A stretch of 37,257 bases of DNA, from the sequence record SRR31156797_9628; one strand, 5' to 3'. The translations under genes were made by a program, and so were the position numbers. Below, piece by piece: positions 5,462 to 35,700 of the stretch. The notes under the pieces are model-generated. The model saw only the letters and a program-made list of their open reading frames with translations. It was not told the origin of the DNA and made no database searches. Position 1 is the first letter of the stretch. Every line of letters starts with the position of its first letter.

Positions 5462-5494
5462 CACTTTGGTAAACACAATACAAAAACCATTTTT

Positions 5495-9337: not shown

Positions 9338-9341
9338 GGAG

Positions 9342-10235: not shown

Positions 10236-10241
10236 CTTGCT

Positions 10242-14310: not shown

Positions 14311-14367
14311 GGAGTTGTGAGTTCACCACGCCGAAGGCGGTTTTTGAGTCGTGAGTTGAGAAGTTAG
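14311..14367 (+). repeat. Short heptamer-like repeats (tgagttg variants) around a cgcc-gaa-ggcg hairpin followed by a T run
   Basis: ggagttgtgagtt...cgccgaaggcg (14329-14339) gtttttgagtcgtgagttgagaagtta, directly after the liuB stop codon. Confidence 0.55.
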
Positions 14368-14401
14368 TGTTACATGTTTCGAAAGGTTTTAGCAGATTAA
14401 T

Positions 14402-15484: not shown

Positions 15485-15526
15485 GGCGCCACAAAATTTT
15501 TTAATTAATAAACTTAAATACTGCTA

Positions 15527-16630: not shown

Positions 16631-16653
16631 AATCTTTCGCTAAACATATTTTC

Positions 16654-17442
16654 ATGAAAACATATCAAACCATCGAATTTGAAGTAAAAGAAGATATTGG
16701 CATTGTGTGGCTCAACCGGCCAAAAATTCACAACGCCTTTAATGAAGTGATGATCTCGGAAGTGCTCGACATTTTTACCGAAGTTAACAAAATGGATGAG
16801 ATCAGAGTTGTAATGCTACGGGGTCGCGGCAAATCTTTCTGTGCCGGCGCAGACCTAAACTGGATGGGTGGTGTGGCCGGCTACACTTACGAGCAAAACT
16901 ACGCTGAAAGCCTCAACCTCTCCAAATGCTTTTATGCCATTTACAAGTGTGCCAAGCCCACCATGGCTGTGGTGCATGGAGCTGCTATCGGCGGAGCAAA
17001 CGGGTTACTGGCTGCCTGCGATTTTGCTTACGCTGACGATAACACCACTTTTTCACTGAGCGAAGTAAAAATCGGGATTGTGCCGGCATGCATCTCTCCC
17101 TATGTCACCAAAAGGGTAGGAGAGTATGGCTCAAAAGAGTTGATGCTGACAGGAAAACGCTTTAAGGGCCCTGAGGCTGAAAAACACAAGCTGGTCAACA
17201 AATCGCTTCCCCCGGAACTCCTCGAAGCACACCTCGACTCAGTAGTGAAGCTGCTCCGCACCAGCGGCCCAAAAGCCATGACCCACTGTAAAAATCTTAT
17301 TTACGAAATCTCAAACAAGCTAACCCTGGATGACGCCATCACATACACTGCCAAAATGATCGCCGAAATCCGCGCATCCGATGAAGGCCAGGAGGGCATG
17401 GATGCATTTCTGAATAAACGCAAACCGAATTGGGTGGAGTGA
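16654..17442 (+). CDS. liuC: Methylglutaconyl-CoA hydratase (crotonase family)
   Basis: LNRP..HNAFN, FCAGADL.WM, GAAIGGANGL.AACD, FSLSEVKIG.VPA.ISPYV, EGQEGM.AFL.KRKP.W. Adjacent to the MCC subunits. Confidence 0.88.
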   Translation: MKTYQTIEFEVKEDIGIVWLNRPKIHNAFNEVMISEVLDIFTEVNKMDEIRVVMLRGRGKSFCAGADLNWMGGVAGYTYEQNYAESLNLSKCFYAIYKCAKPTMAVVHGAAIGGANGLLAACDFAYADDNTTFSLSEVKIGIVPACISPYVTKRVGEYGSKELMLTGKRFKGPEAEKHKLVNKSLPPELLEAHLDSVVKLLRTSGPKAMTHCKNLIYEISNKLTLDDAITYTAKMIAEIRASDEGQEGMDAFLNKRKPNWVE

Positions 17443-17483
17443 TGGATATGACTGCTATGGATACAGGCTTTGGCGGGCATGAA

Positions 17484-17609
17484 AAGCCGCACGGCCGTGC
17501 GGCTTAAAAGGCAAGCAGGGTTGGGGTGACATACGAACGCGCGCAGCCGTGCGGCTCAGAAGGCACCGCAGGGTGGGAAGGGTATGTAAAGCCGCACGGC
17601 CGTGCGGCT
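17484..17609. repeat. Three REP-like GC-rich palindromes at ~52-53 bp period
   Basis: aagccgcacggccgtgcggctt 17484-17505 (perfect 22 bp), a degenerate copy at 17536-17557, and agccgcacggccgtgcggct 17590-17609 (perfect 20 bp). Confidence 0.85.
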
Positions 17610-17672
17610 CCGTATGCCAGCCTCCCCACAGGCCATAAAAACTATAAGAAAACATAAAATAAAACTTACTAC

Positions 17673-19685
17673 ATGTCAATGAAAAGCAGACTCTTCGATA
17701 AAATCCTCATCGCCAACCGGGGTGAAATTGCCATCCGCATTATGCGGGCAGCAAAAGCTTTGAACATCAGAACCGTCGCTGTTTATGCTGAGGTAGATAA
17801 AGACTCCTGGCATGTTTCCTTTGCCGATGAAGCCTATTGCCTTGGTGAACAGGAACTGGCCGACACCTACCTGAATGTTGATAAAATCATTGAAATAGCA
17901 AGAGATGCCGGGGCTGACGCAATCCATCCGGGTTACGGTTTTCTTTCGGAGAACCCAACACTGGTTGAAGCCTGCGAAAAAAGCGGGATCGTTTTCATTG
18001 GCCCGGATACCCGTGCAATTACCTTGATGGGAAACAAAATCGAATCCAGGGCTTTTGTGCAGGAGTTGAAAGTGCCCACTACCCAGGGCGTAACGGGTGA
18101 TGCCAAAAAGCTAATCGCTGAGGCTGAAAAGATTCCAATGCCAATTCTCGTTAAAGCAGCTGCAGGAGGCGGTGGAAAAGGCATGCGGATTGCCAGGGAT
18201 TTAAAGGATCTTCCTGAAATCATTGAAACCACCCAGCGTGAAGCCCTATCTTATTTTGGTGACGGAACCGTGTTTGTGGAAAAATACGTTGAAGAGCCCC
18301 GCCATATCGAAATACAGGTTATGGGCGACAAGCACGGAAATGCAGTTCATTTGTTTGAACGCGAATGTTCCATCCAGCGGCGTTATCAGAAAATAATTGA
18401 AGAATCTCCCTCCCCAACCTTAAACGATGAAGTTCGTCATAAAATGGGTGAAGCGGCAGTTAAAATTACTAAAGCTATCGGCTACAGCAATGCCGGAACC
18501 ATCGAATTTTTGGTGGATAAAAACCTGGATTTCTATTTCCTGGAGATGAATACCCGGATCCAGGTGGAGCATCCTGTTACCGAAATGGTTACCGGAGTTG
18601 ACCTGGTTCAGGAGCAAATCTCTGTTGCTGCAGGCAATCCTTTAAGCTTTGCCCAGGAAGATATCTTGCAAAGCGGCCATGCCATCGAGTGCAGGGTCTA
18701 TGCCGAGGATCCTGCCAACAACTTTTTGCCTTCTCCCGGGCAGATGATTTTTTACAGGGAGCCACACAATCACAGAGTTCGGATCGACGCATGCACAAAT
18801 AAGGCTGCAACAATCCATAGCTTTTACGATCCCATGATCGCAAAGGTTATTGTTTGGGAAAATGACCGCGAACACGCACGTCGGAAAATGATTGATGTGC
18901 TGAAAGATTACATCAGCCATGGCATAAAAACCAATATCAGGTTTCTGATCGAACTGCTTCAGGAGAAAAACTATATCGAAAATACAATTTCCACAAAATT
19001 TTGTGATGATCATCTGGATGAACTGGTAAAGGCTTCTGAAGAAAAGCGGGGAAATATCGTAAATGATGCCCCCATTACAGCTTATGTTTTGTACTATCTC
19101 AAGTTTAATGAAGATGCCGAAAAACCTGATATCTGGCACCAGATCGGATACTGGCGTGATGTGATTGAATTTAACCTGAAAATGGATGAGGATGATTACG
19201 ATGTGATTGTTTACCACCTGAATAAAAACCTTTCGCGCGTAATTATTGATGACCGCGAGTATGTTGTTGAAACCCCACATCTTACAAAAAACGAAGTCAC
19301 CATCAAATCAAAGGAAGGTATTTTCAGAGCTGTGATCTCGCATGATAGGTTGGGTAATGCTTTTGTGAGCGTTAATGGTCATATTTTCAACATTCATCGT
19401 GATGATTTGTTGATCAAAGAGGACGTGTACACCGGCATCGACAGTCCCGACGGAGGGGGAGACGGCCTGATTTTTACCCCAATGCCCGGTAAGGTAGTGA
19501 AGGTAAATGTGAAACCTGGTGATGATGTCACCAAAGGCGCAGTCCTTTTGATCGTTGAAGCCATGAAAATGGAAAACAACATCGTTGCCCCTCGGGAGGG
19601 TAAGATTGAAAAGGTGAATGTGAAGGCCGGCAAAATGGTTGATGGAAGTCAGCCGCTGATGGTCATGGCAGAAGGTGAGGGTTAA
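17673..19685 (+). CDS. liuD: 3-methylcrotonyl-CoA carboxylase, biotin carboxylase/biotin carrier (alpha) subunit
   Basis: ILIANRGEIA, HPGYGFLSEN, GGGGKGMR, RECSIQRRYQK, EMNTRIQVEH, and C-terminal biotinyl EAMKM. Start 17673 or 17679. Confidence 0.9.
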   Translation: MSMKSRLFDKILIANRGEIAIRIMRAAKALNIRTVAVYAEVDKDSWHVSFADEAYCLGEQELADTYLNVDKIIEIARDAGADAIHPGYGFLSENPTLVEACEKSGIVFIGPDTRAITLMGNKIESRAFVQELKVPTTQGVTGDAKKLIAEAEKIPMPILVKAAAGGGGKGMRIARDLKDLPEIIETTQREALSYFGDGTVFVEKYVEEPRHIEIQVMGDKHGNAVHLFERECSIQRRYQKIIEESPSPTLNDEVRHKMGEAAVKITKAIGYSNAGTIEFLVDKNLDFYFLEMNTRIQVEHPVTEMVTGVDLVQEQISVAAGNPLSFAQEDILQSGHAIECRVYAEDPANNFLPSPGQMIFYREPHNHRVRIDACTNKAATIHSFYDPMIAKVIVWENDREHARRKMIDVLKDYISHGIKTNIRFLIELLQEKNYIENTISTKFCDDHLDELVKASEEKRGNIVNDAPITAYVLYYLKFNEDAEKPDIWHQIGYWRDVIEFNLKMDEDDYDVIVYHLNKNLSRVIIDDREYVVETPHLTKNEVTIKSKEGIFRAVISHDRLGNAFVSVNGHIFNIHRDDLLIKEDVYTGIDSPDGGGDGLIFTPMPGKVVKVNVKPGDDVTKGAVLLIVEAMKMENNIVAPREGKIEKVNVKAGKMVDGSQPLMVMAEGEG

Positions 19686-19769
19686 TTTTTAATTGTGAAT
19701 AGAATAAGTACCCCAAAAAATAATAATTATCGAATACCTGGTAACAAATAACCAAAAACCTTATTAGAT

Positions 19770-20918
19770 ATGGACTTTGAATTAACAGATGATCAAAAAA
19801 TGATTCGCGAGGCTGTTCGCGATTTTGCCGAAAGAGAGATCCGGCCTGTAGCTCAGGAGCTGGACGAAAAGGCAGAGTTTTCCCCTGAACTCACCAGAAA
19901 AATGGGTGAGCTTGGATTATTCGGAATGTATCTCCCGGAAAAATATGGTGGTCAAGGCATGGATACACTGGCATATATCATTGCTGTGGAAGAAGTTTCA
20001 CGTGTTGATGGCAGCCAGGGAGCAACGCTTGCAGCGCACAATTCGCTGGGTATTGGCCCATTATACTATTATGGCACCGAAGCGCAAAAAATGAAATATC
20101 TCCCACAGCTTTGCACCGGCGAAGCACTTTGGGGATTTGGCCTCACCGAACCCAATGCCGGCTCCGATTCCAGGGGAACAAAAACCACTGCTGCAATTGA
20201 AGGAGACGAATGGGTGATCAACGGATCAAAAATTTTCATTACCAATGGTTCAGCAGATATTTCTGTTGGTTCAGCGGTTCAGGCCGTGACAAAAACACAT
20301 GACAACGGAAAAAAAGAATATACTACGATCATAGTTGAAAAGGATACACCGGGTTTTAAGCGGGTTTCGATGCATGGTAAAATGATGTGGCGGGCATCTG
20401 ATACTGCAGAATTGTATTTTGATGATTGCCGCGTGCCAAAAGAAAACCTGCTAGGCGAAGTGGGAAAGGGCTCAAAAATAATGCTTTCAACGCTGGATAA
20501 TGGCAGGCTTTCGATCGCAGCCATGGGGCTTGGAGCGGCCCAGGGGGCTTTTGATCTGGCTATGCAATATGCTCAGGAAAGACATCAGTTTGGTAAGCCC
20601 ATTTCGAAATTTCAGATCAATGCTTTCAAACTGGCCGATATGGCCACAAAAATCGAACATGCCCGTTGGTTCCTATACCGGGCCTGCTGGCTGAAAGACA
20701 ATAATAAACCCTTTGCAAAGGAAGCAGCCATGGCAAAACTGCATTGCTCAGAAATTGCCAGGGAAGTAGCTGATGAAGCAGTTCAGATTCACGGTGGATA
20801 CGGATTAATGAAGGATTATGATGTGGAAAGAATTTACCGCGACCAGCGCTTGCTCCAGATTGGTGAAGGAACCTCAGAAATACAGAGGTTGGTAATATCA
20901 CGACATTTGGGATTATAA
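19770..20918 (+). CDS. Acyl-CoA dehydrogenase, probably isovaleryl-CoA dehydrogenase function by context
   Basis: FGLTEPNAGSD, INGSKIFITNG, R.QFGKPI, AVQIHGGYG, QIGEGTSEIQR. Confidence 0.9.
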   Translation: MDFELTDDQKMIREAVRDFAEREIRPVAQELDEKAEFSPELTRKMGELGLFGMYLPEKYGGQGMDTLAYIIAVEEVSRVDGSQGATLAAHNSLGIGPLYYYGTEAQKMKYLPQLCTGEALWGFGLTEPNAGSDSRGTKTTAAIEGDEWVINGSKIFITNGSADISVGSAVQAVTKTHDNGKKEYTTIIVEKDTPGFKRVSMHGKMMWRASDTAELYFDDCRVPKENLLGEVGKGSKIMLSTLDNGRLSIAAMGLGAAQGAFDLAMQYAQERHQFGKPISKFQINAFKLADMATKIEHARWFLYRACWLKDNNKPFAKEAAMAKLHCSEIAREVADEAVQIHGGYGLMKDYDVERIYRDQRLLQIGEGTSEIQRLVISRHLGL

Positions 20919-20950
20919 AATCCCAACTAAACAAATTAAAAATTACAATT

Positions 20951-21142
20951 ATGGAAATTAAGAAAACTGAATGCACTGTATTTGACCAAGGCCCTTACAT
21001 GATTAAGGGAGATTTTAAAATGGTTGATGCAAAAGGCAATGAAATTCGTGTAGCCGATACAACATATTTATGTCGTTGTGGCCATTCCAAAAACAAACCA
21101 TTTTGCGATGGTATGCACAAAGAAGTAGATTTTAAAGGATAA
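20951..21142 (+). CDS. Small CDGSH-type iron-sulfur protein
   Basis: 63 aa; GPY.IKG beta-cap and LCRCGHSKNKPFCDGMH (Cys3-His [2Fe-2S] motif). It fills the intergenic gap in the operon orientation. Confidence 0.88.
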   Translation: MEIKKTECTVFDQGPYMIKGDFKMVDAKGNEIRVADTTYLCRCGHSKNKPFCDGMHKEVDFKG

Positions 21143-21181
21143 TTCAAACCAGTAGTTTTTTAAAACCTAATATCAAGAACA

Positions 21182-23122
21182 ATGGCTGAAAAAATGCTAT
21201 GGAAACCCAAACCTGATAAAGCGAAAAAATCACAGATGTGGGAGTTTCTTCAGCTGGTGCATAAAAAATATGATTTGGCTGCAGCAGATTACGCTCATCT
21301 GCATGCATGGAGTGTTAAAGCTCCCACGGAGTTTTGGGGTGAGTTCTGGAAATATGCTGGTGTAACACACGACAAAGAATTTGAGACTGTTGTGGATGAT
21401 GCCCATAAAATGCCCGGAGCCAAATGGTTCAAGGGGGCCAGACTAAATTATGCTGAAAACCTGCTGAAATACCGGGGCGGAAAAACAGCTATAATATTCA
21501 GTGGCGAAAATGGTACAGATCGACGGATTTCGAGGAATGAGTTGTACACTGAGGTTAAAAGAGTTGCTGATGGATTAAAAATGCTGGGTGTAAAAAAAGG
21601 TGATTGTGTGGCAGGATTTATGCCCAATATCCCGGAAACAGTAATTGCCATGTTGGCAACATCTTCCATCGGGGCGATCTGGTCATCCTCATCACCTGAT
21701 TTTGGGATCAAAGGGGTGCTCGACCGGTTTTCGCAGATCGAACCCAAGGTTGTTTTTTCGGCAGATGGCTATTTCTACAACGGAAAACAATTCGATTCGC
21801 AGGAGAAGCTCAAAGGAATTCTTGAGAAACTTCCTTCTGTTGAAAAAGTCGTGCTCATAAATTACTCTGGAAAAAGGGATATTACTAAAATTGACAAAGC
21901 TGTTGCCTGGGAAGGCTTCGGCAATGCCAATGCTCCCGAATTATCGTTTGAACAGCTTCCCTTCGATCACCCGCTTTACATCATGTATTCTTCCGGGACC
22001 ACTGGACTACCCAAAAGTATTGTTCATTCAGCCGGTGGTACGCTGATCCAGCACCTTAAAGAATTACGATTGCATTGCGACCTGACCGAAGAGGACACCA
22101 TTTTTTATTTTACCACCTGTGGCTGGATGATGTGGAACTGGGTGGTGAGCAGCCTTGCTGTTGGTTCAACGCTGGTGCTTTTTGATGGCAACCCTTTCCA
22201 TCCGTCTCCTGATGCCTTGCTAAAAATGGCTGATGAACTGGATATTACCATTTTTGGGACGAGCGCAAAATACATTGCATCACTGGAAGATGCTGAAGTT
22301 AAACCCAAAGAAATTTCATCATTTCCCAAACTCAAAGCCATCACAAGCACAGGCTCCCCACTATCCAACGAAAGCTTTGAATACGTTTACCGGGATTGGA
22401 AAGCTGATGTACAGCTTTCTTCAATAGCCGGAGGGACAGATATCATTTCCTGTTTTATTCTCGGAAATCCTTTGCTTCCGGTTTATCGGGGTGAAATACA
22501 ATGTGCCGGCCTGGGCATGGATGTTGATTGCTTTGATGACATGGGTAGGTCGATCCGGAATGAAAAGGGCGAATTGGTGTGCAAGACCGCTTTTCCTTCC
22601 ATGCCGGTTTACTTCTGGAATGACAAGGATGGGAAGAAATATCACAAAGCTTACTTTGAGGTCTATGATAACATTTGGCACCATGGCGATTATATTGTAA
22701 TGAGTAACTATGGTGGCGTTACCATGTATGGCCGTTCTGATGCCACACTCAACCCTGGCGGTGTAAGAATTGGTACGGCCGAAATTTACAATGTGGTTGA
22801 AAATATGGATGAGGTTGCAGATTCTGTGATTGTTGGGCAGCAGCATGATGGTGATGAAAGAGTGGTTTTATTTGTGAAGCTAAACCAGGGAATAACCCTG
22901 GGTGATGATCTGGTAAAGAAAATCAGGACAAATATCAGGAAGGGATGCAGCCCTCGACATGTTCCTGCTATCATCAAGGAAGTAACAGATGTTCCTTATA
23001 CCTTAAACGGAAAAAAAGTTGAAGTAGCTGTGAAGAAAATCATTCACGGGGAAGATGTGCTAAATCGCGATGCTTTGAAAAACCCGGAATCATTGGATCA
23101 GTTCGTTAGCATTTTGAAATAA
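21182..23122 (+). CDS. Acetoacetate--CoA ligase (acetoacetyl-CoA synthetase)
   Basis: WF.GARLNYAENLL, SPDFG..GVLDRF.QIEPK, YSSGTTGLPK.IVH, TTCGWMMWNW, GGTDIISCF, GRSDATLNPGGVRIGTAEIY, TLNGKKVE. Confidence 0.93.
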   Translation: MAEKMLWKPKPDKAKKSQMWEFLQLVHKKYDLAAADYAHLHAWSVKAPTEFWGEFWKYAGVTHDKEFETVVDDAHKMPGAKWFKGARLNYAENLLKYRGGKTAIIFSGENGTDRRISRNELYTEVKRVADGLKMLGVKKGDCVAGFMPNIPETVIAMLATSSIGAIWSSSSPDFGIKGVLDRFSQIEPKVVFSADGYFYNGKQFDSQEKLKGILEKLPSVEKVVLINYSGKRDITKIDKAVAWEGFGNANAPELSFEQLPFDHPLYIMYSSGTTGLPKSIVHSAGGTLIQHLKELRLHCDLTEEDTIFYFTTCGWMMWNWVVSSLAVGSTLVLFDGNPFHPSPDALLKMADELDITIFGTSAKYIASLEDAEVKPKEISSFPKLKAITSTGSPLSNESFEYVYRDWKADVQLSSIAGGTDIISCFILGNPLLPVYRGEIQCAGLGMDVDCFDDMGRSIRNEKGELVCKTAFPSMPVYFWNDKDGKKYHKAYFEVYDNIWHHGDYIVMSNYGGVTMYGRSDATLNPGGVRIGTAEIYNVVENMDEVADSVIVGQQHDGDERVVLFVKLNQGITLGDDLVKKIRTNIRKGCSPRHVPAIIKEVTDVPYTLNGKKVEVAVKKIIHGEDVLNRDALKNPESLDQFVSILK

Positions 23123-23204
23123 TTAACTATATTAGCTTGTTGAATTTTAGCTAATAGTTTAACATAATAAGGAGAATATAATCGTATTAATAAGACACTA
23201 ACCT

Positions 23205-24215
23205 ATGAAATATCCAAAAAAAGTTGTTGTTGGAGATATCACTGTGAGGGATGGCTTCCAACATGAAGAAATTTTTATTCCTACTCGGGCCAAACTTTGG
23301 CTTGCCGAGGAACTGCTGTTGGCAGGATTTAAGCATATCGAGGTAACCAATTTTGGAAATCCTAAGGGAATGCCCCAATTTGCCGATGCTGATGAGCTGT
23401 TTAAATTGATCAGGGCCAGTAAACGGGTTAAGCATTTACTGGATGATGCCATGCTTACAGCCATTACCATTCGTGAACGATCGGTACAGCGTGCCATCGA
23501 TGCCAAAATTGCAGGATACGGCCCCGACAGGATTTTGCTAATGGTATCTACCAGCGAATCACACCAAAAGAAAAATTCAGGTCTCACCATTGATGAATAC
23601 TGGAAGATGAGCGAAGAATGGGTGAAAAAAGCCCGCGATGCCGGCCTTGCTGTTAACGGAACGGTAAGCACAATTTGGGGCTGCCCAATTGAAGGCCCTA
23701 CCGAAATGAAAAAAGCTATTGAGTTTACAAAGCGTTGGTTTGATATTGGAGCAACAGATGTGGAGCATGCCGATCATGATGGATCAGCATCTCCGGATAG
23801 GGTTTATCGATATTTTTCTGACCTTCTTGATAATGTGGATAATCCTGAAAAACAAATCGCACACTTCCACACCACCCGAGGTTGGGGATTGGCAAATGTT
23901 TTAGCTGCGCTTCAGGCAGGCATGACAAACTATGAGGCTACTATGGGAGGCCTGGGCGGACAACCGGCAAATTTTGTAAGCGGCGTTCCGGTGCCCGGAA
24001 CTGGGGATTATTATTACAAAGATCCTTCGGATGTTGGGCTTGTTTCTACCGAAGACATGGTGGTTATGATGGATGAAATGGGCATCGAAACCAACCTGGA
24101 TATCGACAGAATTCTGGAGATTGGAAAAATGGTTGAAAAGATTGTTGGCCGGAAGCTACGCTCCGAGTCTATCAGGAATGGCCGAATACCAAAAGAAATG
24201 TCTGGACGTGCTTAA
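23205..24215 (+). CDS. HMG-CoA lyase family (DRE-TIM metallolyase) enzyme, probably the LiuE-equivalent step
   Basis: RDGFQHE, STSESHQKKN, STIWGCPIEG, metal-binding HFHTTRG, STEDMVVM. Last gene of the cluster. Lacks the GGCP cysteine. Confidence 0.8.
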   Translation: MKYPKKVVVGDITVRDGFQHEEIFIPTRAKLWLAEELLLAGFKHIEVTNFGNPKGMPQFADADELFKLIRASKRVKHLLDDAMLTAITIRERSVQRAIDAKIAGYGPDRILLMVSTSESHQKKNSGLTIDEYWKMSEEWVKKARDAGLAVNGTVSTIWGCPIEGPTEMKKAIEFTKRWFDIGATDVEHADHDGSASPDRVYRYFSDLLDNVDNPEKQIAHFHTTRGWGLANVLAALQAGMTNYEATMGGLGGQPANFVSGVPVPGTGDYYYKDPSDVGLVSTEDMVVMMDEMGIETNLDIDRILEIGKMVEKIVGRKLRSESIRNGRIPKEMSGRA

Positions 24216-24233
24216 GAGAATTCACACTAAAAT

Positions 24234-24270
24234 AAAATCCCCGGTTCGTCATTGAAACGGGGTTTTTTTT
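24234..24270. terminator. Probable bidirectional intrinsic terminator between convergent genes
   Basis: aaaatccccggttcg-tcat-tgaaacggggtttttttt: imperfect stem with A and T tracts on either side. Confidence 0.7.
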
Positions 24271-24893
24271 TACTTCCTGAGTTTATCATATTTAAAATGC
24301 TCTTCGCTAAATGGCAATGAATTTACATCTGACTTAAAGGCAAGCCAGTCAAGGATTTTAATGGCCAACTCCCGGTTCAGATTCATAATTTCATATTCAA
24401 ATACAACCTTTACCCTTGGAAATCCATCATCGAGAATTTTTTCTTTTTTACTGTCATCGGTTACGAGACGTGTCTTGGCCAGGTAATCATCCCTGATCTC
24501 GATTTCAGCAAAATTCATTTTTTTTGAGACATTAAAATGAACAGACCTGATATGTTTATAGTGCTGACGCTTAACAAAAGGAAATGAAGTGGTTTTTACG
24601 ATCTTATCCAGGCTCTCTGACGTTGAAGCAAAATAGAGGTGATTATCGAGTTTCGATTCTTTATTTTTGAAATCAATGACATTCCAGGGCAGTTTTTTCT
24701 CGTTGGGAAGGTTATTGGCACGTGAGCATAAATCGAAAAAAACGGCTATGAATTCCTCGTATGCTTTTTTGTTGGCTTTGTAGTTCTCCCTGATCCTGAA
24801 AATTTTATCCTGTACCTTCGCACTTTCGCGCGAAGGTTTCTCCCGCTTTCTTTGTTCTTCTCTTTCCGCTTCTTCTAACCAGTGTGACATCAA
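24270..24893 (-). CDS. Hypothetical cytoplasmic protein (charged, N-terminal helical region)
   Basis: 207-aa ORF 37 nt downstream of the buk-like gene on the same strand. No signal peptide or recognisable motif. Confidence 0.7.
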   Translation of the reverse strand: MMSHWLEEAEREEQRKREKPSRESAKVQDKIFRIRENYKANKKAYEEFIAVFFDLCSRANNLPNEKKLPWNVIDFKNKESKLDNHLYFASTSESLDKIVKTTSFPFVKRQHYKHIRSVHFNVSKKMNFAEIEIRDDYLAKTRLVTDDSKKEKILDDGFPRVKVVFEYEIMNLNRELAIKILDWLAFKSDVNSLPFSEEHFKYDKLRK

Positions 24894-24930: not shown

Positions 24931-26001
24931 TTATTTATACTCAAGTATTTCAGCTTCCTCTTTCATGATCATCATGGCGCTATCGGCCAGTGCATCCATA
25001 TCAGAAACAAATGGAGAAATAATTATGTTGCCAAGTTTCAGAATGCGTTTCTTTACTTCGTCGGTAAATAGTTTGGATTGGAAAATGTTTCCTGAAAGTA
25101 TGATCGCTTCTATGGGATCTTCCAGGGCAACATACATGGAGCCAATTTCCTTGGAGAGCTGGTATGCCATGGCTTTGATTATGAATTCTGCTTTCTTGTC
25201 GCCTTCCTTAATGCGGCTTTCGATGAGGTTGATATTTGAAGTTCCCAGGTGTCCATAAAGGCCGCCTTCGTGAACAAGCATTTTACGCAATTGTGCGCGT
25301 TCATATTTTCCGCTGTAACAAAGGTCAATCAGATCGCCGTAAGGAATGGAGCCGGCGCGGCTGTAGGAAAAAGGCCCCTCACCATCATAAGCCTGGTTTA
25401 CGTCTACTACTTTTCCTTTTCGGTGTGCGCCAACTGAAATCCCTCCTTCGCCTACATGTGCGATTATGAGATTCAGTTCTTCATATTGCTGGTTTACAGA
25501 CTTTGCATAGTTGCGGCCTGCAAATTTATGGTTAAGGGCATGGAAAATAGATTTCCTTTCAAACATGGGATGACCGCTTACACGGGCAATATCGTCAAGT
25601 TCGTCAACCACCACCGGATCAGCTAAAAATGCCCTTGCATTTGGAATCATTGTAGCAATATGGTCGGCGATGAGGCCACCCAGGTTGGTTTCGTGCATCT
25701 TGCTTTCCTGGCGAAGATCATTTTTGAGTGCATCATTTATTTCATAAACGCCTGACGCAATCGGCTTTATCAGTCCACCTCTTCCAATCACAATTTCAAT
25801 CTCCTCCATCCTGATGTCATTTTCTTTCAACTCCGCAAGAATCTGATCTGTACGTGGTGTTTCCTGTTTTAGTACATCCTGGTCGTAAAGTTTCGGATCT
25901 ATTTTAATGGTTTTGAAAAATACCCAACTGTTGTTTTGGAAAACGGCGATTTTGGTATCATAAACCTGAGGGTAAATTACTAGGATTTTCCTGGTCAGCA
26001 T
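24931..26001 (-). CDS. buk: Butyrate kinase homologue (ASKHA acetokinase family) with degenerate nucleotide-binding motifs
   Basis: GRGGLIKPI.SGVY.IN, NLGG.IA, DPVVVDEL..IARVSG.P..ERKSIFHALNHK, GISVGAH.KGKVVDVN, GEGPFS..RAG and AMAYQLSKEIG are Buk-specific. NPGSTST, TGG and GEDE motifs are altered. Confidence 0.8.
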   Translation of the reverse strand: MLTRKILVIYPQVYDTKIAVFQNNSWVFFKTIKIDPKLYDQDVLKQETPRTDQILAELKENDIRMEEIEIVIGRGGLIKPIASGVYEINDALKNDLRQESKMHETNLGGLIADHIATMIPNARAFLADPVVVDELDDIARVSGHPMFERKSIFHALNHKFAGRNYAKSVNQQYEELNLIIAHVGEGGISVGAHRKGKVVDVNQAYDGEGPFSYSRAGSIPYGDLIDLCYSGKYERAQLRKMLVHEGGLYGHLGTSNINLIESRIKEGDKKAEFIIKAMAYQLSKEIGSMYVALEDPIEAIILSGNIFQSKLFTDEVKKRILKLGNIIISPFVSDMDALADSAMMIMKEEAEILEYK

Positions 26002-26042
26002 TTTATCAAGTTTTCGTTTGATTCACTAAAAAATTTGGCGGT

Positions 26043-26050
26043 CAAAAATA
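26043..26050 (-). promoter_or_regulatory. -7 box (TATTTTTG) upstream of the buk-like gene
   Basis: + strand caaaaata equals TAnnTTTG on the - strand, ~40 nt upstream of the start codon. Confidence 0.5.
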
Positions 26051-26070
26051 TAAATATTTTATGTCGCGAT

Positions 26071-29000
26071 TTACATATTGCGCCGATACTTTCCGCCCAC
26101 TTCAAATAACGCATCGCTGATTTGCCCCAGTGAGGCATATTTTGAAACCTCCATCAGGCTTTCAAAAATATTGTGGTTATGCAATGCTGCATCTTTTAAG
26201 GTCTCCATATTTTCTTCAACTTCTTTTTGATAGGTCTTATGAAGCTCGCTTAACATTGAAATCTGGTACTCCTTTTCAGCTTTTGTGGCCCTGATCACTT
26301 CTCCTGGAATTACAGTAGGTGAACCTTTGGAAGAGAGGTAGGTGTTTACGCCAACAATGGGCAGTTTGCCTGTGTGTTTCATGGATTCATAATACAACGA
26401 CTCTTCCTGGATTTTACTGCGCTGGTACATGGTTTCCATCGCGCCAAGTACACCGCCACGCTCGGTAATGCGATCAAATTCTGAAAGAACGGCTTCTTCA
26501 ACCAGGTCGGTCAATTCTTCAATGATAAACGAACCCTGTAGCGGATTCTGGTTTTTGGCCAGCCCAAGTTCCTTGTTTATGATCATCTGTATGGCAATGG
26601 CACGGCGCACAGAATCTTCGGTGGGTGTGGTGATGGCCTCATCGTAGGCGTTTGTATGCAATGAATTACAATTGTCATAGATGGCGTAAAGTGCCTGGAG
26701 TGTGGTCCGGATATCGTTAAAATCGATTTCCTGTGCGTGTAAGGAACGGCCGGAAGTTTGAATATGATATTTCAATTTTTGGGAACGTTCATCTGCGCCG
26801 TATTTTAGTTTCATGGCTTTCGACCAGATCAATCTGGCAACGCGGCCCATCACGGAGTATTCAGGATCAATTCCATTGGAGAAGAAGAATGACAGGTTGG
26901 GTGCAAATTTACTGATGTCCATACCGCGACTGGCGTAATATTCCACGTAAGTGAAACCATTGGCCAGCGTAAACGCCAACTGGGAAATTGGGTTGGCACC
27001 GGCTTCTGCGATATGGTATCCCGATATGGAAACCGAATAAAAATTCCGCACATTGTTGTTGATAAAATATTCCTGGACATCACCCATCACTTTTAAGGAG
27101 AAATCGGTAGAGAAAATGCAGGTGTTCTGGGCCTGATCTTCTTTCAAAATGTCGGCCTGGATGGTGCCCCGAACTATACAAATGGTGTCCTTTTTTATCT
27201 TTTCATAAACGTCTTTTGGCAGTACCTGGTCACCGGTAACGCCAAGCAGCATCAGGCCAAGGCCGTCATTTCCCTTTGGTAGACTTCCCTGGTATTCGGG
27301 CCGTTTGGTTCCCCGTTTTTTATAAATGGATTTAATTTTCTTTTCAACCTCAGCTTCCAGGCCGTGCTCTTTAATATAAAGTTCACATTGCTGATCGATG
27401 GCCGCATTCATAAAAAAGCCGACCATTGTAGGCGCCGGGCCATTGATGGTCATAGAAACGGAAGTTTTAGGGTCAGCCAGGTTGAAGCCGGAGTACAGTT
27501 TCTTGGCATCATCCAGGCAGCAAATCGAAACACCTGAATTTCCTATTTTTCCGTAGATATCCGGACGCCTGTCGGGGTCGCGGCCATAGAGGGTAACCGA
27601 ATCAAATGCCGTAGAAAGCCTGCGGGCGGGCATGTCGTAAGAAACATAATGGAAACGTTTGTTCGTACGTTCAGGACCGCCTTCACCGGCAAACATCCGC
27701 GTTGGATCTTCACCTTCCCGCTTGAATGGAAATACGCCGGCAGCAAACGGGAATTCTCCCGGTACATTCTCCCGCAGGTTCCATTTCAGGATATCTCCCC
27801 ATCCGGTGTATTTGGGCAGGCTGATCCTGGGTATTTGCAAATGTGATAATGATTCTGTGGAGGTCTCAACACAAATATCCTTTCCGCGCACTTTATAGCA
27901 AAATACTTTCTCCTGCAATGCGGTTTTTTTACCTTCCCAATCATCAAGAATTTTTTTGTTGTGTGGATCCAGGTTGAGGACTGTTTTATCGTAAATCCCC
28001 TTGATGGCATCGGCAACCTCTTCATTGCCGTGTTCCCTGGCCATTTTTATGGATTCGTCAAGCGCGAAAAGTTTTTGAGCGATTTCACGCTGCTCCTCGG
28101 TCCATGAATTGTAATTTCTCACAGTTTCGGAAATCTCGGAAAGATATCTGACCCTTTTTGGTGGAATGATGAAAATCTTTTCGGACATCTCCTCGGTGAT
28201 CACCATATTTGATTTCAGATCTGCCCCGGTTTTCTCAACGATTTTTTCCATCAATGCCTTGTAAAGTGCATTGGTGCCCGGATCGTTAAATTGTGAAGCG
28301 ATTGATCCATAAACCGGCATGTCGTCAGGTTCCTGATCAAAGAGCTGATGGTTTCGTTGATATTGTTTTTTTACATCGCGCAGAGCATCCAGAGAACCCC
28401 GTTTGTCGAATTTATTTAAGGCAATAATATCGGCAAAATCCAGCATGTCAATCTTTTCAAGCTGTGTGGCAGCTCCGTATTCCGGAGTCATCACATACAT
28501 CGATACATCGCTGTGATCAACGATGGCCGTGTCGCTTTGGCCTATCCCGGAAGTTTCCAGAATGATAAGATCAAAACCGGCAATTTTCATTAGACAAACG
28601 GCATCCTTCACATAATTCGACATGGACAGGTTGGCCTGGCGGGTTGCAAGCGAGCGCATATAAATCCGGGAGTCGTTGATGGAGTTCATCCTGATCCTGT
28701 CGCCAAGTAAAGCCCCGCCGGTTTTTCGTTTTGAGGGATCTACCGAAACAATCGCAATGGATTTGTCCGGAAAGTCTTCCAGAAACCTGCGAACCATTTC
28801 ATCCACCAGTGAGGATTTTCCGGCTCCTCCCGTACCTGTAATGCCTAAAACCGGGATTTCCGTTTTGCATTCATTCACATGATTTTGGATAAAATCAGCA
28901 GTGCCGTTGGGGAAGTTTTCAACCGCTGAAATCACCTGCGACAGGTGTACCACATTTTTGTTCCTGATTTTGCCAATATCAGGTGAAATATTTTTTCCAG

Positions 29001-29439
29001 TGGGATGGTCCGACTTTTTAAGCAGGTCGTTGATCATCCCCTGCAGTCCCATGGAGCGCCCATCATCAGGCGAATAGATTCTTGCAATGCCATATTCATG
29101 CAATTCGGCGGCTTCCTCGGGGAGGATTACGCCACCGCCGCCACCAAAGATTTTTATATGGCCGGCGCCTTTTTCTTTGAGCAGATCATACATGTATTTG
29201 AAATACTCAATGTGTCCACCCTGGTAGGATGTTATGGCCACAGATTGGGCATCTTCCTGGATAGCACAATCCACGATCTCCTGCACAGAGCGGTCGTGGC
29301 CAAGATGGATCACCTCAGCACCCGATGACTGGATAATCCTGCGCATAACATTTATGGCTGCATCGTGCCCGTCGAAAAGAGAAGCAGCTGTGACTATTCT
29401 GACTTTGTTTTTGGGTTTGTAGATTTTTGGTGCCTGCAT
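26071..29439 (-). CDS. icmF: Fused isobutyryl-CoA mutase IcmF (B12-binding domain + MeaB-like GTPase + mutase barrel)
   Basis: N-terminal [13 protein letters not shown] cobalamin motif; [19 protein letters not shown] and NKFD of the G-protein; [40 protein letters not shown] and [11 protein letters not shown] of the mutase. 1122 aa ending YRRNM. Confidence 0.95.
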
Positions 29440-29718: not shown

Positions 29719-32700
29719 ATGAAAGGAAAAACAGTTATGAAAACCTTTACAACACTGCTTATGGCCGTAATTTTGAGCGTTATGGTCACGGCGCAGGATT
29801 ATGAAATGATTTCGCTGAAAGAAGTTAAAGAAATTGCCAACCGGAATGCCAAAGCTCAGTGGGGAGAAGTCTTCCCGAATGAACCGATCGCCTATTACGG
29901 TTTCGATGGCGAAATCATTGCCTGGCGCATAAATTATTCAATCGGAAAACCTTTTCCTTCTGTTCGGGATTTAAAGGCAGAAAGAAAAACATCCCGTGAA
30001 AACGGGGATAAACTCTCGCAGTGGGGATCAGGTAAATTCGGACGGTTATTAATTTCAGCCCGAAGTAATATGCCGGTAATTCTCGAACGATCCAAAAGCC
30101 TTTCGCCGGAATATGCTGAGATATTAAAGCTGGAACGGATGAAGAAAACCGCTTTTGGCTCACAGGATGCTGTTCTGAAAAAGGTATGGTATTTCAATCA
30201 CTTTAATACATGGTATGAATTTCACGCGAATGACCAGATCAGGTACATCAATATTTCACCAACCGGAGGAATATTAGATGAAAAGGAATTTAAGGAGGAA
30301 AGGTCAAAAGCCGGTCATTTTGTTGAAACTGCCGATTTTTCGGAAGAATGGAGCAAGTATAGAAAGGGATTCAGCCCGGGAGGAAAGGATATCATCATGA
30401 TACCTGCTCATGGGGTGATGCCTTTTTACGACTGGAGTTATGGTTGCACCCCCACGGCAGGAGCTATGCTGCTGGCATATTGGGATTACCTTTCGCTTCT
30501 GACGGATGAAGACAACTATTCGGGTTTTGTATCCTACCATTACCAGCGTTATGATACGATTGACAGCGAAGACCGCGAAAGTCACTGGGATTATAATGTG
30601 CCAAACCTGCAGAAAATGCTGGCGCTGGCCATGGACACGGATACCATCTCAGGAACTACCTGGCCACATAACATGGATGATGGATATGCACATGTTTGTA
30701 ATTCTATGCTGGATTACGATTTTGAAATTGAAGGGCGCTACACCATGCACTGGACCCTGACCACCGGTGAAATAGATGCGGGCAGGCCCATTCATATTGA
30801 TATCAGCGGCCACTCGGTATGCGGCGTGGGCTACGATCCCGATGAAAATCTGGTAATTACAAGATATACCTGGGATCCCGTTTATACAGCAATCAGTCGT
30901 TGGTCGATGCTTCATATGGTACTCGTAAAACCCGGAGGCCCGCGGGGTGTAGCAGTCAGCCTGGCTGAGCCCTTTGGCGACAGAAGGTACAACAGAACCG
31001 GCAACGGAGAACTATTGCATGGAAACGACTACTTTGAGATAAAATGGTATGCTGATAAATATCTTAATGACACATGGGCACAAATTGCCTATTCCACAAA
31101 TGGAGGGCATCACTGGGAAGAGATTGTTGCCAATACGCCAAATATTGGCTATTATAACTGGCATGTGCCCGATGGCATTGATTCGGAAGAATGCCGCGTG
31201 CAGGTCATCATTCACGATCCATTGTGTGAACCCCGAAGTGCCGGCGTTGACGGCAGTTATGGCAATTTCGAAATTCAATCAGGAGGAAGTGTTTCATTTT
31301 TGCCTCATGAATCAATCCGGTCAACCGACACAAGAACCAAATATTATAATCTTCAACATAACCACAACTCATGGGGAGCTGTAGGCGCTATTTCATCCGA
31401 CCCGGAGGTCACCTGGACCTGTGATCTGTGGGATGATGAATTTGATGCCTCCCTGGTTGAATCCTATTTTGATCACGCTCAGAATCTTGTGGTATTCGAC
31501 AGAAATCATCTTACAGAGGAATTTTACGGTATAAAAACACGCCCGCTAAACGGAGATACCACGGTTTACATTCAATTCGACGGGCACGATGAAAGTCTTG
31601 AATTGATGCCGGGCGCCGAACTACAAATCAACTGGCCCAACAACCGTATTATTAAAATGTATGATGTTCATCTTGATCCCGGACAGTATTATTTCAGGGT
31701 TCGTCCAATAGGAACCGGACCGAAGGTTGACATCGCATTTTTTAGCTCAGGTGATGGCGAATATTTTAAATCCATTTTCGATGCTGATTATATTTCGGAG
31801 AACACGGGCAGTGCCGATGACTCATTTGTAGTAACTATTGATGAGGAAGATGATTATGGGTTTTGTATTTTTTCATCAGAAAGAGGTGCAGGCATAGTTA
31901 GCATAAAGCTGGAGGAAGCTTTTATCTGGAGGGGAACGGTCGACAATGACTGGCACAACCCTGAAAATTGGAGTGGCGGAAGTGTTCCTACCAGTTCGAA
32001 CGATGTAGTGATTCCGGATGTTACCAATCCGCCAAACATTTATACCGGAGCAGCAAACTGCAACAAATTAGATTTGCTTGAGGGAGCGGAACTCACTATT
32101 ACCAATTATAATTTACAGGTAAGTGGCCAGGCATCCATTGGCGGGCATTTGCATATGCCCGGCCCAAGTGCAATTTTATCCTGTTATGATGACATTTCGG
32201 TTGGGGCATCAGGCCATTTTGACCTGCATGAAAATGCAAAAATTGATGCCTATAAAAACTGGACTTTTGAATCAGGTTCACACGCAAACTTCGATGATGG
32301 AAAGGTGCAATTTATGGGTTCGGAAAACTCGATCATTTACGTTAAATCCGGAAATGTCTGGTTTCACAGCCTTCATATATACAAATCCAGCGGAGCATTC
32401 GTGGCATACGACAACTGTCCCGGTTTGCAACCCTTGCGCATCAAGGGCCAGTTTATTATTGGTAATGGGGCGCAGTTTATACAGTGGGCTTTGTACAACA
32501 CCATTTTTGAGGGGCCTTTTCTCGCATATTCCGGCAGCAGCTTTGGGTTTGTTAACGGCACTGCCATATTCGACTATGATGGAAGTGGCGGTATCGCAGT
32601 GAATTCAGAGCCCGGCAGTTATTTTAATGATGTTGTGGTAAGCTGCACAAACTTTCTGGACCTTTCGGGTGATATCGAAATCCGGGGCGACCTGACCATC

Positions 32701-35700
32701 GAAGAAGGAAATTTCAGAACCATGGGCCACGATGTTTATATCCAGGGCGACTGGAACGACGAGGCCTGGGGATTTAACCACGGCAACAGCCGGGTGATAT
32801 TCAATGGAACGGGTATTCAGGAATCCTATGGCGGTGCGTTCTGGGAGCTGGAGCTGGATAAGCCTTCCGGCGAGTTGCGAATCCGTGAAAATACTACCGG
32901 AGTGCAGCATTACGACTGGACCCAGGGAACAGTCAGGGTTAATGGCGGATACTTTTATGTGGCCGACCTGGAAGATGACGGCTTGTATGGTGGAATCATC
33001 CTCACCGAAGGAAACATCGAAATACAGCAGGACCCGGGCCAGTTCTTTGACATGAATGCTGACCTGGAGATTTCAGGCGGAGAAATGGAAATATCCGGAG
33101 GCAATGGAATTGGATTCTGGCCCTATTCCAATGATGCTTCCATAACCATGTCTGACGGTGTTTTAGACATCAAGGATAACGGTATCAGGATTCACAATTC
33201 GATCAATTATAATTTTGAAACAAATATTACGGGCGGAACAATAAGAATCAACGGCGACCTGGGCATTTACCGCGATGATTTTCATCCGGCCGGAGGCACG
33301 ATCTTTATGTACGGCTATGATGAGGATTCGGAAATTTATGGTTTGAGCACGGCAAGCCTGCACAATTTAACCGTGCATAAAAGCAGTAGTAAGGCGATCA
33401 AGAAAACGCTTGTGGCCAGCGGAACGCTTGATATTAATGGTGATTTTGTGCTGGAAGACGGGGTATTTTCCGCTCCCCCGGTTATGAAAATTTATGGCCA
33501 GTTTATCAATAACCAAAGTGGAAGCTCATTTCATGAGATGGAAGGAACTGTGATCTTTGACGGACCGGAAGAAAATACAATTTCGGACAATGCCACATTT
33601 TACAATCTCACCATTCAAAAACCATCCGGATATTTTATTGTAAATGAAGGTGTTTCTATCGACATTAAAAATACCCTAACCGTTGATGAAGGCCTGATGG
33701 GTTTTCTGGCCGGTTGCGACCTGTCGCTTGGTGAAGCCCTTGCTGTGAATTCTGGTGGCACCATTATTTTCGAAGGCCAGGAACTTGACAGAATTAACGT
33801 AAATTCCGCAGTTGATAAAGGAAATTATACATTCGATGTCAATAGCGGCGGTACCTTTGGTGCGGGTTACACCACTTTTATTTACATGGACATGGAGGGA
33901 ATAAACCTCCACAGCGGCAGCTACATTATACCCGAAGGTGCTTTCTACCATTGCAATTTTGCCCACGGTTTGCCAGGCGGAACTTTGCTGACCATCGACA
34001 ATGGTGCGGATATCGTTATTCATGATGCATATTTCCTCACAAATACAACGGGTATGGCGCACAATGTGACAAAAAATGTTGACAATGGCTCCGTTCAGTT
34101 TGATGAGGCAATCGGTGATTTTTCAGGTCCGGATTTTGAAAATGATCCCTACAACCGCATCCACTGGGAGTATATCCCTCCATTTGACCTGCCGTTTGCA
34201 GAAAACTGGGATTCTGAAGATTTTGAAACGAACAACTGGACGCCCACCGGGGACAACTGGATTGTAGATGCATATAACGGGAATGATGCGCCTTCAGCCG
34301 CTTTCCGTTTCACCCCGTCAATTACAAATTATTCGCAACATTTGCGCAGCTACCAGATCAGCGGTGTAGGCCATGACTGGATAAATCTGAGCTATGATAT
34401 TGCTTATGATGAATACCTCTCCGGCACACTCGAACAACTTTCGGTGCGGGTGGTCTATCCCAATGGAGATTTTTATACCGTTGCAAATTATACCAACGAT
34501 TCCGGATCATTCGGCTATAGTTCAGAGGAGATTGACATTTCAGCATATGCAGCCGGAGAGATTTTTCAGGTAAGCTTTGTAGCCCATGGCGAAAATTCCT
34601 ATAACATAAACAACTGGAACATCGACAACATTTTAGTGGAGGAGTATGTTCCTGAACCCGGAACTTTAAAAGGTACAGTTACAGGGCCTGACGGAAAAGG
34701 AGTAATCGAAGGGGCGTATGTACAAATTCTGAACACACCCTTCGAAACATTCACTAATAGTGAAGGCTCGTATATTTTAGAAAACATTCCGCCAGACTTT
34801 TATTCCGTGCAGGTTTCAGCAAACGGTTATCAAAATGAAAATAAAGGTGTGGAAGTAGCATCTGGAATTACCGTTGTCATGAACTTTGGGCTTACACCGC
34901 TGCCTCCTGAATATTGCTCTGAAAACCTGTATGAAACCGGCTGCTTGGAAGGCGATGGCATCAATTCTTTCTTCCTGGAGGATATCGAAAACGAAGATTC
35001 GGGTTGTAGCGAGGGTGGTTACGGAGATTTCACGGATATGTCAACCGACCTGAGTATTGGAGGGTTTTATCCCCTCAAAGTTTCATCCAACTATGGAAAT
35101 CAGTATGTGTCGGTTTGGATTGATCTTCAGGACGATTATACTTTTTCGCCATTTGAATTATTTGTTGAGGATTATGTGGTACCTACCGCAGGTGAACTGG
35201 TTGAAATACCTTTTGAAATTCCTGATACGCTTGGGGCCGGAACCCACAGGCTGAGGATCAGATCCAACTGGAATGCATCCTCCTCCGATCCCTGTGCGAC
35301 ATACACCTATGGGGAGGTTGAGGATTATACGGTCAACCTCGTAGATACAGCGGCCCTGTCAGGGTTAACGATCTTCGTTTCTGATTCACTCACCAAAGCA
35401 CCCATTGAGAACGCATATGTTGAAGTGGTCGGAACCAATTGGTTCGGTTACACCGAAGATGAGGGTTATTGTTTCATCAGCGGAATGGAATCCGGGATAT
35501 ACGATGTGCTCGTCATGGCAGAAGGTTTTGAAGATTTATTGCTGCCGGATCAAAACTTGTACGCGAACCAAACACTTGCTGTTTCTTGCGAGCTAACATC
35601 CGCTGAACCGGAAACACACACTATTCAACTACAACAAGGCTGGCAGGGATTATCGTCCTACCTGATGCCACAAGACAATACAATTGCAAATATTTTTCAG

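Follow-up and report, generated by a model that had tools for sequence, protein, structure and literature searches.

The gene considered here has its closest described counterparts among butyrate kinases (Buk) and acetate kinases (ACKs). In the ACK of Methanosarcina (MtACK), according to PMC4390882, the hallmarks of the PHOSPHATE1 loop are Asn7, Ser10, Ser11, Ser12 and Lys14, nucleoside triphosphate (NTP) use is determined mainly by Gly331, which is in contact with the alpha and beta phosphates, and single changes of Asn211, Gly239 or Gly331 lower activity 6- to 200-fold. In the pyrophosphate (PPi)/phosphate (Pi)-dependent ACK of Entamoeba, according to PMC5517563, PHOSPHATE2 is longer by a single Gly, and Gln-Met replaces Gly331-Ile332 and occludes the adenosine pocket; the longer PHOSPHATE2 is described there for no ACKs other than the four of Entamoeba and four putative ones of anaerobic bacteria, and at the Gly331 position the bacterial candidates carry Asp where Entamoeba carries Gln. 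The present work concerns a gene at 24931..26001 (minus strand, ATG start) of a 37,257-nucleotide stretch of DNA from sequence record SRR31156797_9628, hereafter the window, which encodes a Buk paralogue of 356 amino acids (aa). It belongs to a clade, designated YP-type, in which the PHOSPHATE1 loop, the Gly331-equivalent of the ADENOSINE motif, the LOOP3 position and the length of PHOSPHATE2 have been rebuilt and the acyl-phosphate residues retained. The paralogue is probably a neofunctionalised butyrate kinase copy, for which we infer an enzymatic role from sequence comparison. The explanation that we favour, tentatively and at somewhat less than an even chance, is that it would be a still-catalytic acyl-phosphate enzyme which makes no normal use of ATP, with Pi or PPi as the leading candidate partner, and that it would belong to the (iso)butyryl branch of IcmF, the fused isobutyryl-coenzyme A (CoA) mutase encoded next to it.

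The paralogue passes the curated cut-offs of TIGR02707 (379.2 bits, cut-off 289.1) and NF002834 (387.8 bits, cut-off 222), and its relatives in the databases, where they are named at all, are called ‘butyrate kinase’. Pfam Acetate_kinase (PF00871) covers residues 149-307 and nothing more, and matches to acetate kinases are restricted to residues 149-350, with E about 1e-13. The closest solved relative is Buk2 of Thermotoga maritima (1x9j/1saz; E ~1e-77 and 38% identity in the Foldseek alignment). An AlphaFold (AF2) model of the paralogue, with a predicted local distance difference test (pLDDT) score of 83.8, is placed by Foldseek on 1x9j/1saz with a template modelling (TM) score of 0.91 and a root-mean-square deviation of 2.3-2.4, which is the two-domain Buk/ASKHA fold; as modelled, the fold is intact. 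The open reading frame (ORF) is full length and carries every motif quoted in the first-pass annotation, an earlier reading of the sequence alone.

The departures from the family are confined to particular motifs. PHOSPHATE1 (residues 9-17) reads IYPQVYDTK where Thermotoga Buk2 has INPGSTSTK; PHOSPHATE2 (residues 182-189) reads HVGEGGIS against HMG-GGIS, a gain of one residue that is also seen against acetate kinases in the HMMER alignment; ADENOSINE (residues 302-306) reads LSGNI against LTGGL; and the C-terminal stretch (residues 330-339) reads PFVSDMDALA against PGSNEEKALA. In the HMMER alignment to acetate kinases, N305 falls on Gly331 of MtACK and residue 213 falls on the LOOP3 Gly239 position. 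RKSIFHALNH and FS..RAG, which the earlier reading had called intact, are indeed unchanged and lie at residues 149-158 and 211-217 in the Buk2 alignment. Asp334 aligns with the first Glu of the Buk2 NEE sequence, so that the change at the metal site is a substitution and no deletion; we take the Glu which D334 replaces to be the counterpart of MtACK Glu384, with a metal-binding role. R74, H103, D133, H154 and R215 are likewise presumed to correspond to MtACK R91, H123, D148, H180 and R241, the assignment of D133 being our own.

These substitutions are shared by many relatives. In a search of a collection of 5.8 billion proteins, in which 8000 candidates were scored, the best 120 were mostly unnamed and the remainder labelled ‘butyrate kinase’, and the pattern YP(E/Q)xxxTK is present in 30/30 of the relatives from this search that were aligned, at 54-93% identity. 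Loci were also sampled from species-representative genomes (40) and from metagenomes (80), and 109 distinct full-length Buk homologues were compared, frames containing stops or X, exact duplicates and partial matches (query start >10 or end <345) being excluded. The set comprises 85 YP-type sequences (53 YPE, 30 YPQ and 2 FPQ), 18 canonical NPG forms, 5 NPK forms and 1 KPE form. The identical substitutions are seen down to 45% identity to the window protein, and their recurrence is far beyond chance.

When the 85 YP-type sequences are compared with the 18 canonical ones, in the numbering of the window protein, the acyl/phosphoryl side of the active site proves to be kept: R74, D133, H154 and R215 are present in 85/85 YP-type sequences and H103 in 84/85, together with T16, K/R17 and G304 (85/85 each) and R149 (82/85), and P11, G184/G186/G187 and P330 are common to both groups. 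The YP-type sequences leave untouched the residues which, from work on MtACK, are known to bind acetate and the phosphoryl group in transfer. On the other side, the canonical PHOSPHATE1 residues N, G, S and T, each present in 18/18 canonical sequences, and the second S, present in 17/18, are all swapped in 85/85, and an extra PHOSPHATE2 residue (185) is found in 85/85 YP-type and 0/18 canonical sequences. Some of the replaced positions have been fixed again, in PHOSPHATE1 as N to Y10 (83 Y, 2 F), G to E/Q12 (53/32) and S to V13 (65/85), and elsewhere as Q to H158 (77/85), E to V332 (83/85) and E to D334 (85/85). At T14, S15, P213, T303, G305 and G331, where canonical conservation is 17-18/18, constraint has been relaxed; position 305 is Gly in 18/18 canonical and 0/85 YP-type sequences, which use N, S, A, V or I. 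Measured against the functional residues of MtACK, every nucleotide-side element has been altered. The first-pass description of a protein which has lost its ATP and Mg motifs and kept its substrate side therefore captures the rebuilding of the nucleotide motifs and overstates the loss at the metal site, where the Glu of 18/18 canonical sequences is replaced by an Asp that is present in 85/85, so that a carboxylate is maintained.

Two alternatives to the favoured explanation can be weighed on this pattern. The first is that the protein is an acyl kinase of the usual ATP-dependent sort, acting on short or branched chains (isobutyrate kinase would be one example), and that its nucleotide loops have simply diverged, as might be expected from a score above the butyrate kinase equivalog cut-off and from databases that all name butyrate kinase. 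It is also consistent with MtACK Gly331Ala and Gly331Gln, which keep a reduced ATP-dependent activity (kcat 88 and 16 against 715 s-1), and with the lack of contact between PHOSPHATE1 and ATP in the open MtACK crystal structures, both from PMC4390882. Nevertheless, all five PHOSPHATE1 hallmarks (Asn, Gly, Ser, Thr/Ser, Ser) have changed along with PHOSPHATE2 length, LOOP3, ADENOSINE and the metal Glu, when a single change at such sites already costs MtACK the 6- to 200-fold reported in that source, and the same genomes hold a canonical Buk with phosphate butyryltransferase (Ptb), so that a crippled duplicate for the same job is unneeded. We consider an ordinary kinase improbable.

The second alternative, which was the earlier reading of this gene as a pseudokinase, is a non-catalytic pseudoenzyme that retains only an acyl(-phosphate) half-site and acts as a sensor, a regulator or a subunit docking on IcmF, on the product of the downstream gene p207 or on canonical Buk. 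Two glycines that are conserved throughout the ASKHA superfamily, one in the turn of PHOSPHATE1 and the other the second Gly of ADENOSINE, are present in 18/18 canonical sequences and absent in 85/85 YP-type sequences, and the equivalent of Asn7 is Tyr. A canonical Buk is present alongside in the 5/5 genomes checked, as expected for a pairing of dead and active paralogues. What speaks against this alternative is the retention of the catalytic-side Arg, His and Asp residues and of the metal-site carboxylate in 84-85/85 sequences, and the fact that the replaced positions are fixed again instead of being free to vary. Because positions 10, 12, 332 and 334 are tightly conserved after replacement, a re-tooled active site fits better than a dead one, and the pseudokinase reading stands as regards the rebuilt nucleotide side and is weakened as regards the catalytic side. 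We regard it as a possibility of some weight, though a doubtful one.

A non-nucleotide phosphoryl partner, in contrast, is suggested by the parallel with the PPi-dependent acetate kinases. The YP clade displays both of the kinds of change described for them, a PHOSPHATE2 longer by one residue and a replacement of the Gly331-equivalent, and the NPK forms, which combine HAGGGGIS with SGDLF, have the extra Gly and an Asp at the Gly331-equivalent and still retain the PHOSPHATE1 Asn and a PDE(D/N)E motif. It is mainly because the YP and NPK forms share these changes that a different phosphoryl partner is ranked first here, and among the three roles which the first-pass annotation had offered (sensor, regulatory or heteromeric partner, enzyme with a different phosphoryl donor) it is the last that gains most.

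The full NPK-type motif set, INPKNTSSK, HAGGGGIS, SGDLF and YP(D/N)EDE, has both features of the putative bacterial PPi-ACKs and was found at L107, L116, L124, L126 and L128 and in genomes G438, G511, G384, G329 and G470 (loci L138, L143, L145, L148 and L152). A small GAF-domain gene lies just upstream of the NPK gene in 3/5 metagenome loci (L116, L126 and L128), and a CNNM/CorC transporter gene follows it at L116 and L126.

The phylogenetic position of the YP-type sequences is well supported. They form a single clade both in a FastTree analysis of the 109-row set (support 99) and in a quick IQ-TREE analysis of 41 chosen rows (LG+C20, SH-aLRT 99); the NPK forms are their nearest relatives (YP+NPK support 99/98 in FastTree/IQ-TREE), and the combined group stands beside canonical Bacteroidota Buk (87/89). 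The YP sequences stem from Bacteroidota-type metagenome-assembled genomes (MAGs) and metagenomes, and the MAG titles at the sampled loci are mainly Lentimicrobiaceae and Bacteroidales. Each of the 5/5 YP-bearing genomes checked encodes a canonical Buk as well, with the INPGSTSTK motif and a score of 496-516 bits, whose gene in every case directly adjoins the gene best matching phosphate butyryltransferase. The paralogue is thus derived from the Bacteroidota buk lineage and kept beside a canonical ptb-buk pair. On one metagenome contig (L129) the two are neighbours, the canonical ptb-buk pair at 3520-5522 (minus strand) being divergent from an adjoining YP-type paralogue at 6001-7074 (plus strand).

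In the family of a close relative in the GTDB, the YP-type is found in 18/23 genomes and scores 635 bits or more, whereas canonical Buk does not exceed 466; in a class-level sample it is found in the centre genome only (1/301). The profile score fails to separate YP from canonical forms in the order-level sample, where canonical sequences reach 507 bits and NPK sequences score 504-518. A library of 50%-identity clusters holds one representative more than 50% identical to the query, and it is NPK-type. Among other representatives in this library, P0124 (597 aa) is a tandem double Buk, the second half of which lacks the N-terminal domain, and P0125, P0128 and P0129 are Buk relatives with degenerate motif sets of their own, e.g. 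IIPEIQDTR / HMGKGSVS / SGKIF. These odd motif sets indicate erosion of the nucleotide motifs in several Buk lineages.

The second part of the favoured explanation concerns the gene directly upstream of the paralogue:

26071..29439, minus strand: icmF, fused isobutyryl-CoA mutase/GTPase, 1122 aa, 69 bp upstream of the paralogue

The icmF product scores 1764.6 bits against NF045497 (cut-off 1500), which identifies a full-length IcmF, and has the Pfam domains B12-binding, MeaB and MM_CoA_mutase. The icmF-buk gene order recurs at related loci. In the 56 YP-like loci that extend at least 3.5 kb upstream, 3 of them NPK-type, icmF precedes the Buk gene on the same strand at a distance of no more than 400 bp in 19 cases and of no more than 5 kb in 26, and icmF is upstream in 0/15 canonical or other Buk loci. 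The pairing is found through the depth of the clade, at 45-93% identity to the window protein, and some of the MAGs concerned bear a Chlorobiota label. In the 23-genome family the two genes are adjacent in 8 genomes, within 10 kb in 3 and on separate contigs in 6. In the order-level sample IcmF is present in 110/301 genomes, and in at least 16 of the genomes icmF is directly followed by a gene for a Buk homologue; two of these icmF-adjacent genes were read (G580 and G337), and both are non-canonical, the motif sets being VYPEERSTF (G580) and INPDKDHTR with SGEPF. Among 20 genes fetched, a canonical buk lies near icmF in four genomes and an NPK-type gene is convergent to icmF in one. Where icmF does not flank the paralogue, the neighbours are unrelated housekeeping genes.

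Since canonical buk is also found near icmF, the link appears to be metabolic rather than of a chaperone type, and we take the Buk family and IcmF to be connected in these bacteria at the level of the pathway, the YP paralogue having specialised within this connection. This bears on the pseudoenzyme alternative in two ways. The icmF-adjacent relative in G580 lacks the PHOSPHATE1 Lys, and the spacing is tight (69 bp to icmF and 40 bp to p207 here, 10-16 bp to p207 at several loci), as might be expected of a docking subunit; a fully equipped canonical buk near icmF elsewhere speaks for metabolism, however, and p207 accompanies only part of the clade.

A further alternative is suggested by the same neighbourhood, namely that the scaffold supports some other chemistry: acyl-phosphate hydrolysis, acyl transfer to CoA or another acceptor, or acyl-CoA binding in which the old nucleotide pocket would accommodate the ADP portion of CoA. 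The neighbouring IcmF acts on acyl-CoA, ptb is not adjacent to the paralogue, and the old ATP side carries new conserved polar residues (Tyr10, Glu/Gln12, His158 in 77/85, and Asp334). Such chemistry is a conjecture for which no precedent in the acetokinase family was found, and Ptb is encoded elsewhere in the genomes checked; we consider it distinctly improbable.

Under the explanation that we favour, a catalytic enzyme with a non-nucleotide partner, the paralogue would still bind (iso)butyrate or (iso)butyryl-phosphate, and phosphoryl transfer would continue, most plausibly with Pi/PPi, on the model of the acetate kinase of Entamoeba. The branch served would be the interconversion of isobutyryl-CoA and butyryl-CoA by IcmF, which would set the butyryl/isobutyryl balance, and a Ptb encoded elsewhere in the genome would be the source or the consumer of the acyl-phosphate. 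The icmF-buk-p207 cluster is likely to act here as a transcription unit.

Several points weigh against this explanation. With regard to the phosphoryl partner, the conserved Asp which precedes Gln323 in the PPi-ACKs is unmatched in the YP clade, where the position is G304 in 85/85. In PMC5517563, occluding the MtACK pocket or opening that of the E. histolytica ACK (EhACK) left the donor unswitched, so that the motifs are correlates of donor use and no proven determinants, and the YP PHOSPHATE1 loop is altered well beyond the changes described for PPi-ACKs. The Asn to Tyr change and the loss of the hairpin Gly in PHOSPHATE1 could equally mean that no phosphoryl transfer takes place. With regard to IcmF, it is gene order solely that points to the paralogue as its partner; no icmF is nearby in 30/56 YP-like loci with enough flanking sequence, and the 56-locus set contains near-duplicates, such as L003/L053, L057/L058 and L070/L071, which weaken the counts. 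Presence and absence are uninformative in the 23-genome family (IcmF is present in 17/18 YP-positive and 3/5 YP-negative genomes), and IcmF was not found in two YP-type genomes, G614 and G393.

Finally, the paralogue is less conserved than the canonical copy in 10/10 pairs among five genomes (e.g. 76 against 85%, and 48 against 63%), and this faster evolution is also what would be seen in a decaying duplicate, a pseudogene in the making. Decay is countered by the ratio of nonsynonymous to synonymous substitution (dN/dS), which by the Nei-Gojobori method is 0.026-0.069 for YP pairs (12 pairs, another 4 being saturated in dS) and 0.026-0.059 for canonical pairs (3 pairs, another 2 being saturated). 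The paralogue is accordingly under strong purifying selection comparable to that on canonical Buk. The frames are also full-length and open, although frames with stops or X and non-spanning matches had been excluded beforehand, and the substitutions are identical down to 45% identity. Simple decay, envisaged in the first-pass annotation as substitutions confined to this genome and showing a neutral dN/dS, was rejected on these three grounds together, the changes being clade-wide, and its remaining probability is negligible.

The other features of the immediate neighbourhood are as follows:

26002..26070, minus strand: icmF-buk intergenic spacer, containing TATTTTTG at 26043-26050
24270..24890, minus strand: p207, no known family, 206 aa, 40 bp downstream of the paralogue, ATG at 24890
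24222..24269, minus strand: hairpin and U-run, lying between convergent genes and immediately past the p207 stop
19770..24215, plus strand: convergent leucine/ketone-body genes, syntenic with the paralogue at many loci
19770-20918, plus strand: acyl-CoA dehydrogenase
21182-23122, plus strand: acetoacetate-CoA ligase
23205-24215, plus strand: 3-hydroxy-3-methylglutaryl (HMG)-CoA-lyase-like, 200 bits, below the 246 cut-off

The gene p207, which the ORF list starts at a TTG at 24893, has zero Pfam or NCBIfam matches. Behind the paralogue at other loci there are 25 distinct homologues with 28-75% identity, often beginning 10-16 bp after the paralogue stop and sharing an invariant N-terminal HWLE-AE; they occur in both YPQ subclades and at one YPE locus. 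The AF2 model of p207 (pLDDT 80.2) has a helix of 55 residues, a sheet of five strands and a helix at the C-terminus. Foldseek gave no match to this fold at E <= 0.001, and the top VIA-align match, CyaY/frataxin at Z 7.5, lies inside the background stated for the tool. In the ESM Atlas p207 falls in a 91-member ‘hypothetical protein’ cluster which is commonest in Bacteroidota.

The ‘-7 box’ claimed for the paralogue in the first-pass annotation is present as TATTTTTG on the minus strand, 42 nt ahead of the ATG, and fits the Bacteroidetes -7 consensus TAnnTTTG. The motif occurs in the window at chance frequency (32 seen against 33.4 expected), however, so that the box is no more than weakly indicated as a candidate promoter of the paralogue. 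The hairpin after p207 has a folding energy of -14 kcal/mol (z -2.48), was matched by 4/200 shuffles and is missing from the output of a simple terminator scan; icmF-buk-p207 is likely a transcription unit ending at this predicted hairpin. The absence of an adjacent ptb, already noted in the earlier reading, holds for the window as scanned, a PTA_PTB domain being found in none of 21 ORFs.

Beyond icmF, p207 and the leucine genes, the neighbours of the paralogue are variable. In one YPE subclade a conserved protein of ~820 aa often follows it, with stop and start sometimes overlapping (L012:9101-11596, L016:6787-9246, L021:4729-7164, L022:9077-11536 and L025:9032-11512); this protein has a signal-peptide-like N-terminus and no Pfam match, and is unrelated to p207. 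In the window, the convergent genes are part of an apparently complete leucine-catabolic set at 12703-24215 (plus strand), which also has methylcrotonyl-CoA-carboxylase-type carboxyltransferase and biotin-carboxylase subunits and an enoyl-CoA hydratase, and which is interrupted by an ORF of no family at 14402-15484 and by a DUF1028 protein with a type IX secretion system (T9SS) tail at 15527-16630. Other T9SS-tailed ORFs, besides this one, lie at 232-1203 and 1175-2113, and 29719-36756 (plus strand) encodes a 2345-aa protein with a Peptidase_C39-like region, CarboxypepD_reg, GEVED and a T9SS C-terminal sorting domain. At 8124-11525 (plus strand) a sigma factor of the extracytoplasmic function (ECF) type (8124-8663) is followed by three ORFs without a Pfam family (224, 297 and 427 aa), which are possibly an anti-sigma/sensor module.

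How the paralogue is related to described systems can now be stated. With canonical butyrate kinase (EC 2.7.2.7, TIGR02707, Buk2, Bacteroidota ptb-buk) it shares the fold and the acyl/phosphoryl residues, and phylogenetically it is nested beside it. It differs in that N-P-G-S-T-S-T-K has become Y-P-(E/Q)-x-x-x-T-K, that the seven-residue PHOSPHATE2 H-x-G-G-G-(I/V)-(S/T) is longer by one, that the second ADENOSINE Gly, P213 and E214 have been lost, and that PGE(D/N)E has become PxV(N/S)D. Canonical Buk is encoded in a ptb-buk pair, while the gene of the paralogue is not next to ptb and is often next to icmF. Since the databases label such proteins ‘butyrate kinase’, surveys of butyrate producers that count buk, whether gene-targeted or metagenomic, would include a protein which probably does not carry out that reaction.

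The neighbouring gene encodes a full-length IcmF like those of Cupriavidus metallidurans and Geobacillus kaustophilus, in which the mutase is fused with its G-protein chaperone, and we know of no kinase-like accessory gene described for those systems. Nothing was found on this paralogue or on an IcmF-Buk pairing in the full-text literature, subscription papers and supplements lying outside reach. For the sampled Bacteroidota-type MAGs, the association with IcmF suggests that the metabolism of butyrate/isobutyrate and of branched-chain amino acids includes a step which has gone unstudied.

With the PPi-ACK of Entamoeba histolytica (4H0O) and the putative PPi-ACKs of Anaerolineaceae, as they are presented in PMC5517563, the paralogue shares the lengthening of PHOSPHATE2 and the replacement of the Gly331-equivalent; it keeps G304 where the PPi-ACKs have Asp, and is additionally changed at PHOSPHATE1 and at the metal Glu. 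As a member of the Buk branch it is no orthologue of EhACK, and any likeness is therefore convergent. The strongest form of the comparison, which on present sequence evidence we think unlikely though worth stating, is that the YP clade may be the first nucleotide-independent member of the Buk branch, a Pi/PPi-linked (iso)butyryl-phosphate enzyme convergent with the Entamoeba PPi-ACK, with the NPK forms as surviving intermediates. If this is true, IcmF, Ptb and a Pi/PPi-linked paralogue would let anaerobic Bacteroidota tie the isomerisation of butyrate and isobutyrate to PPi-based energy conservation. The progression from canonical through NPK to YP forms offers a natural series in which to study the abandonment of ATP by an ASKHA kinase, and the clade constitutes a second, independent test of rules of donor selection that have been drawn from a single PPi-dependent acetate kinase.

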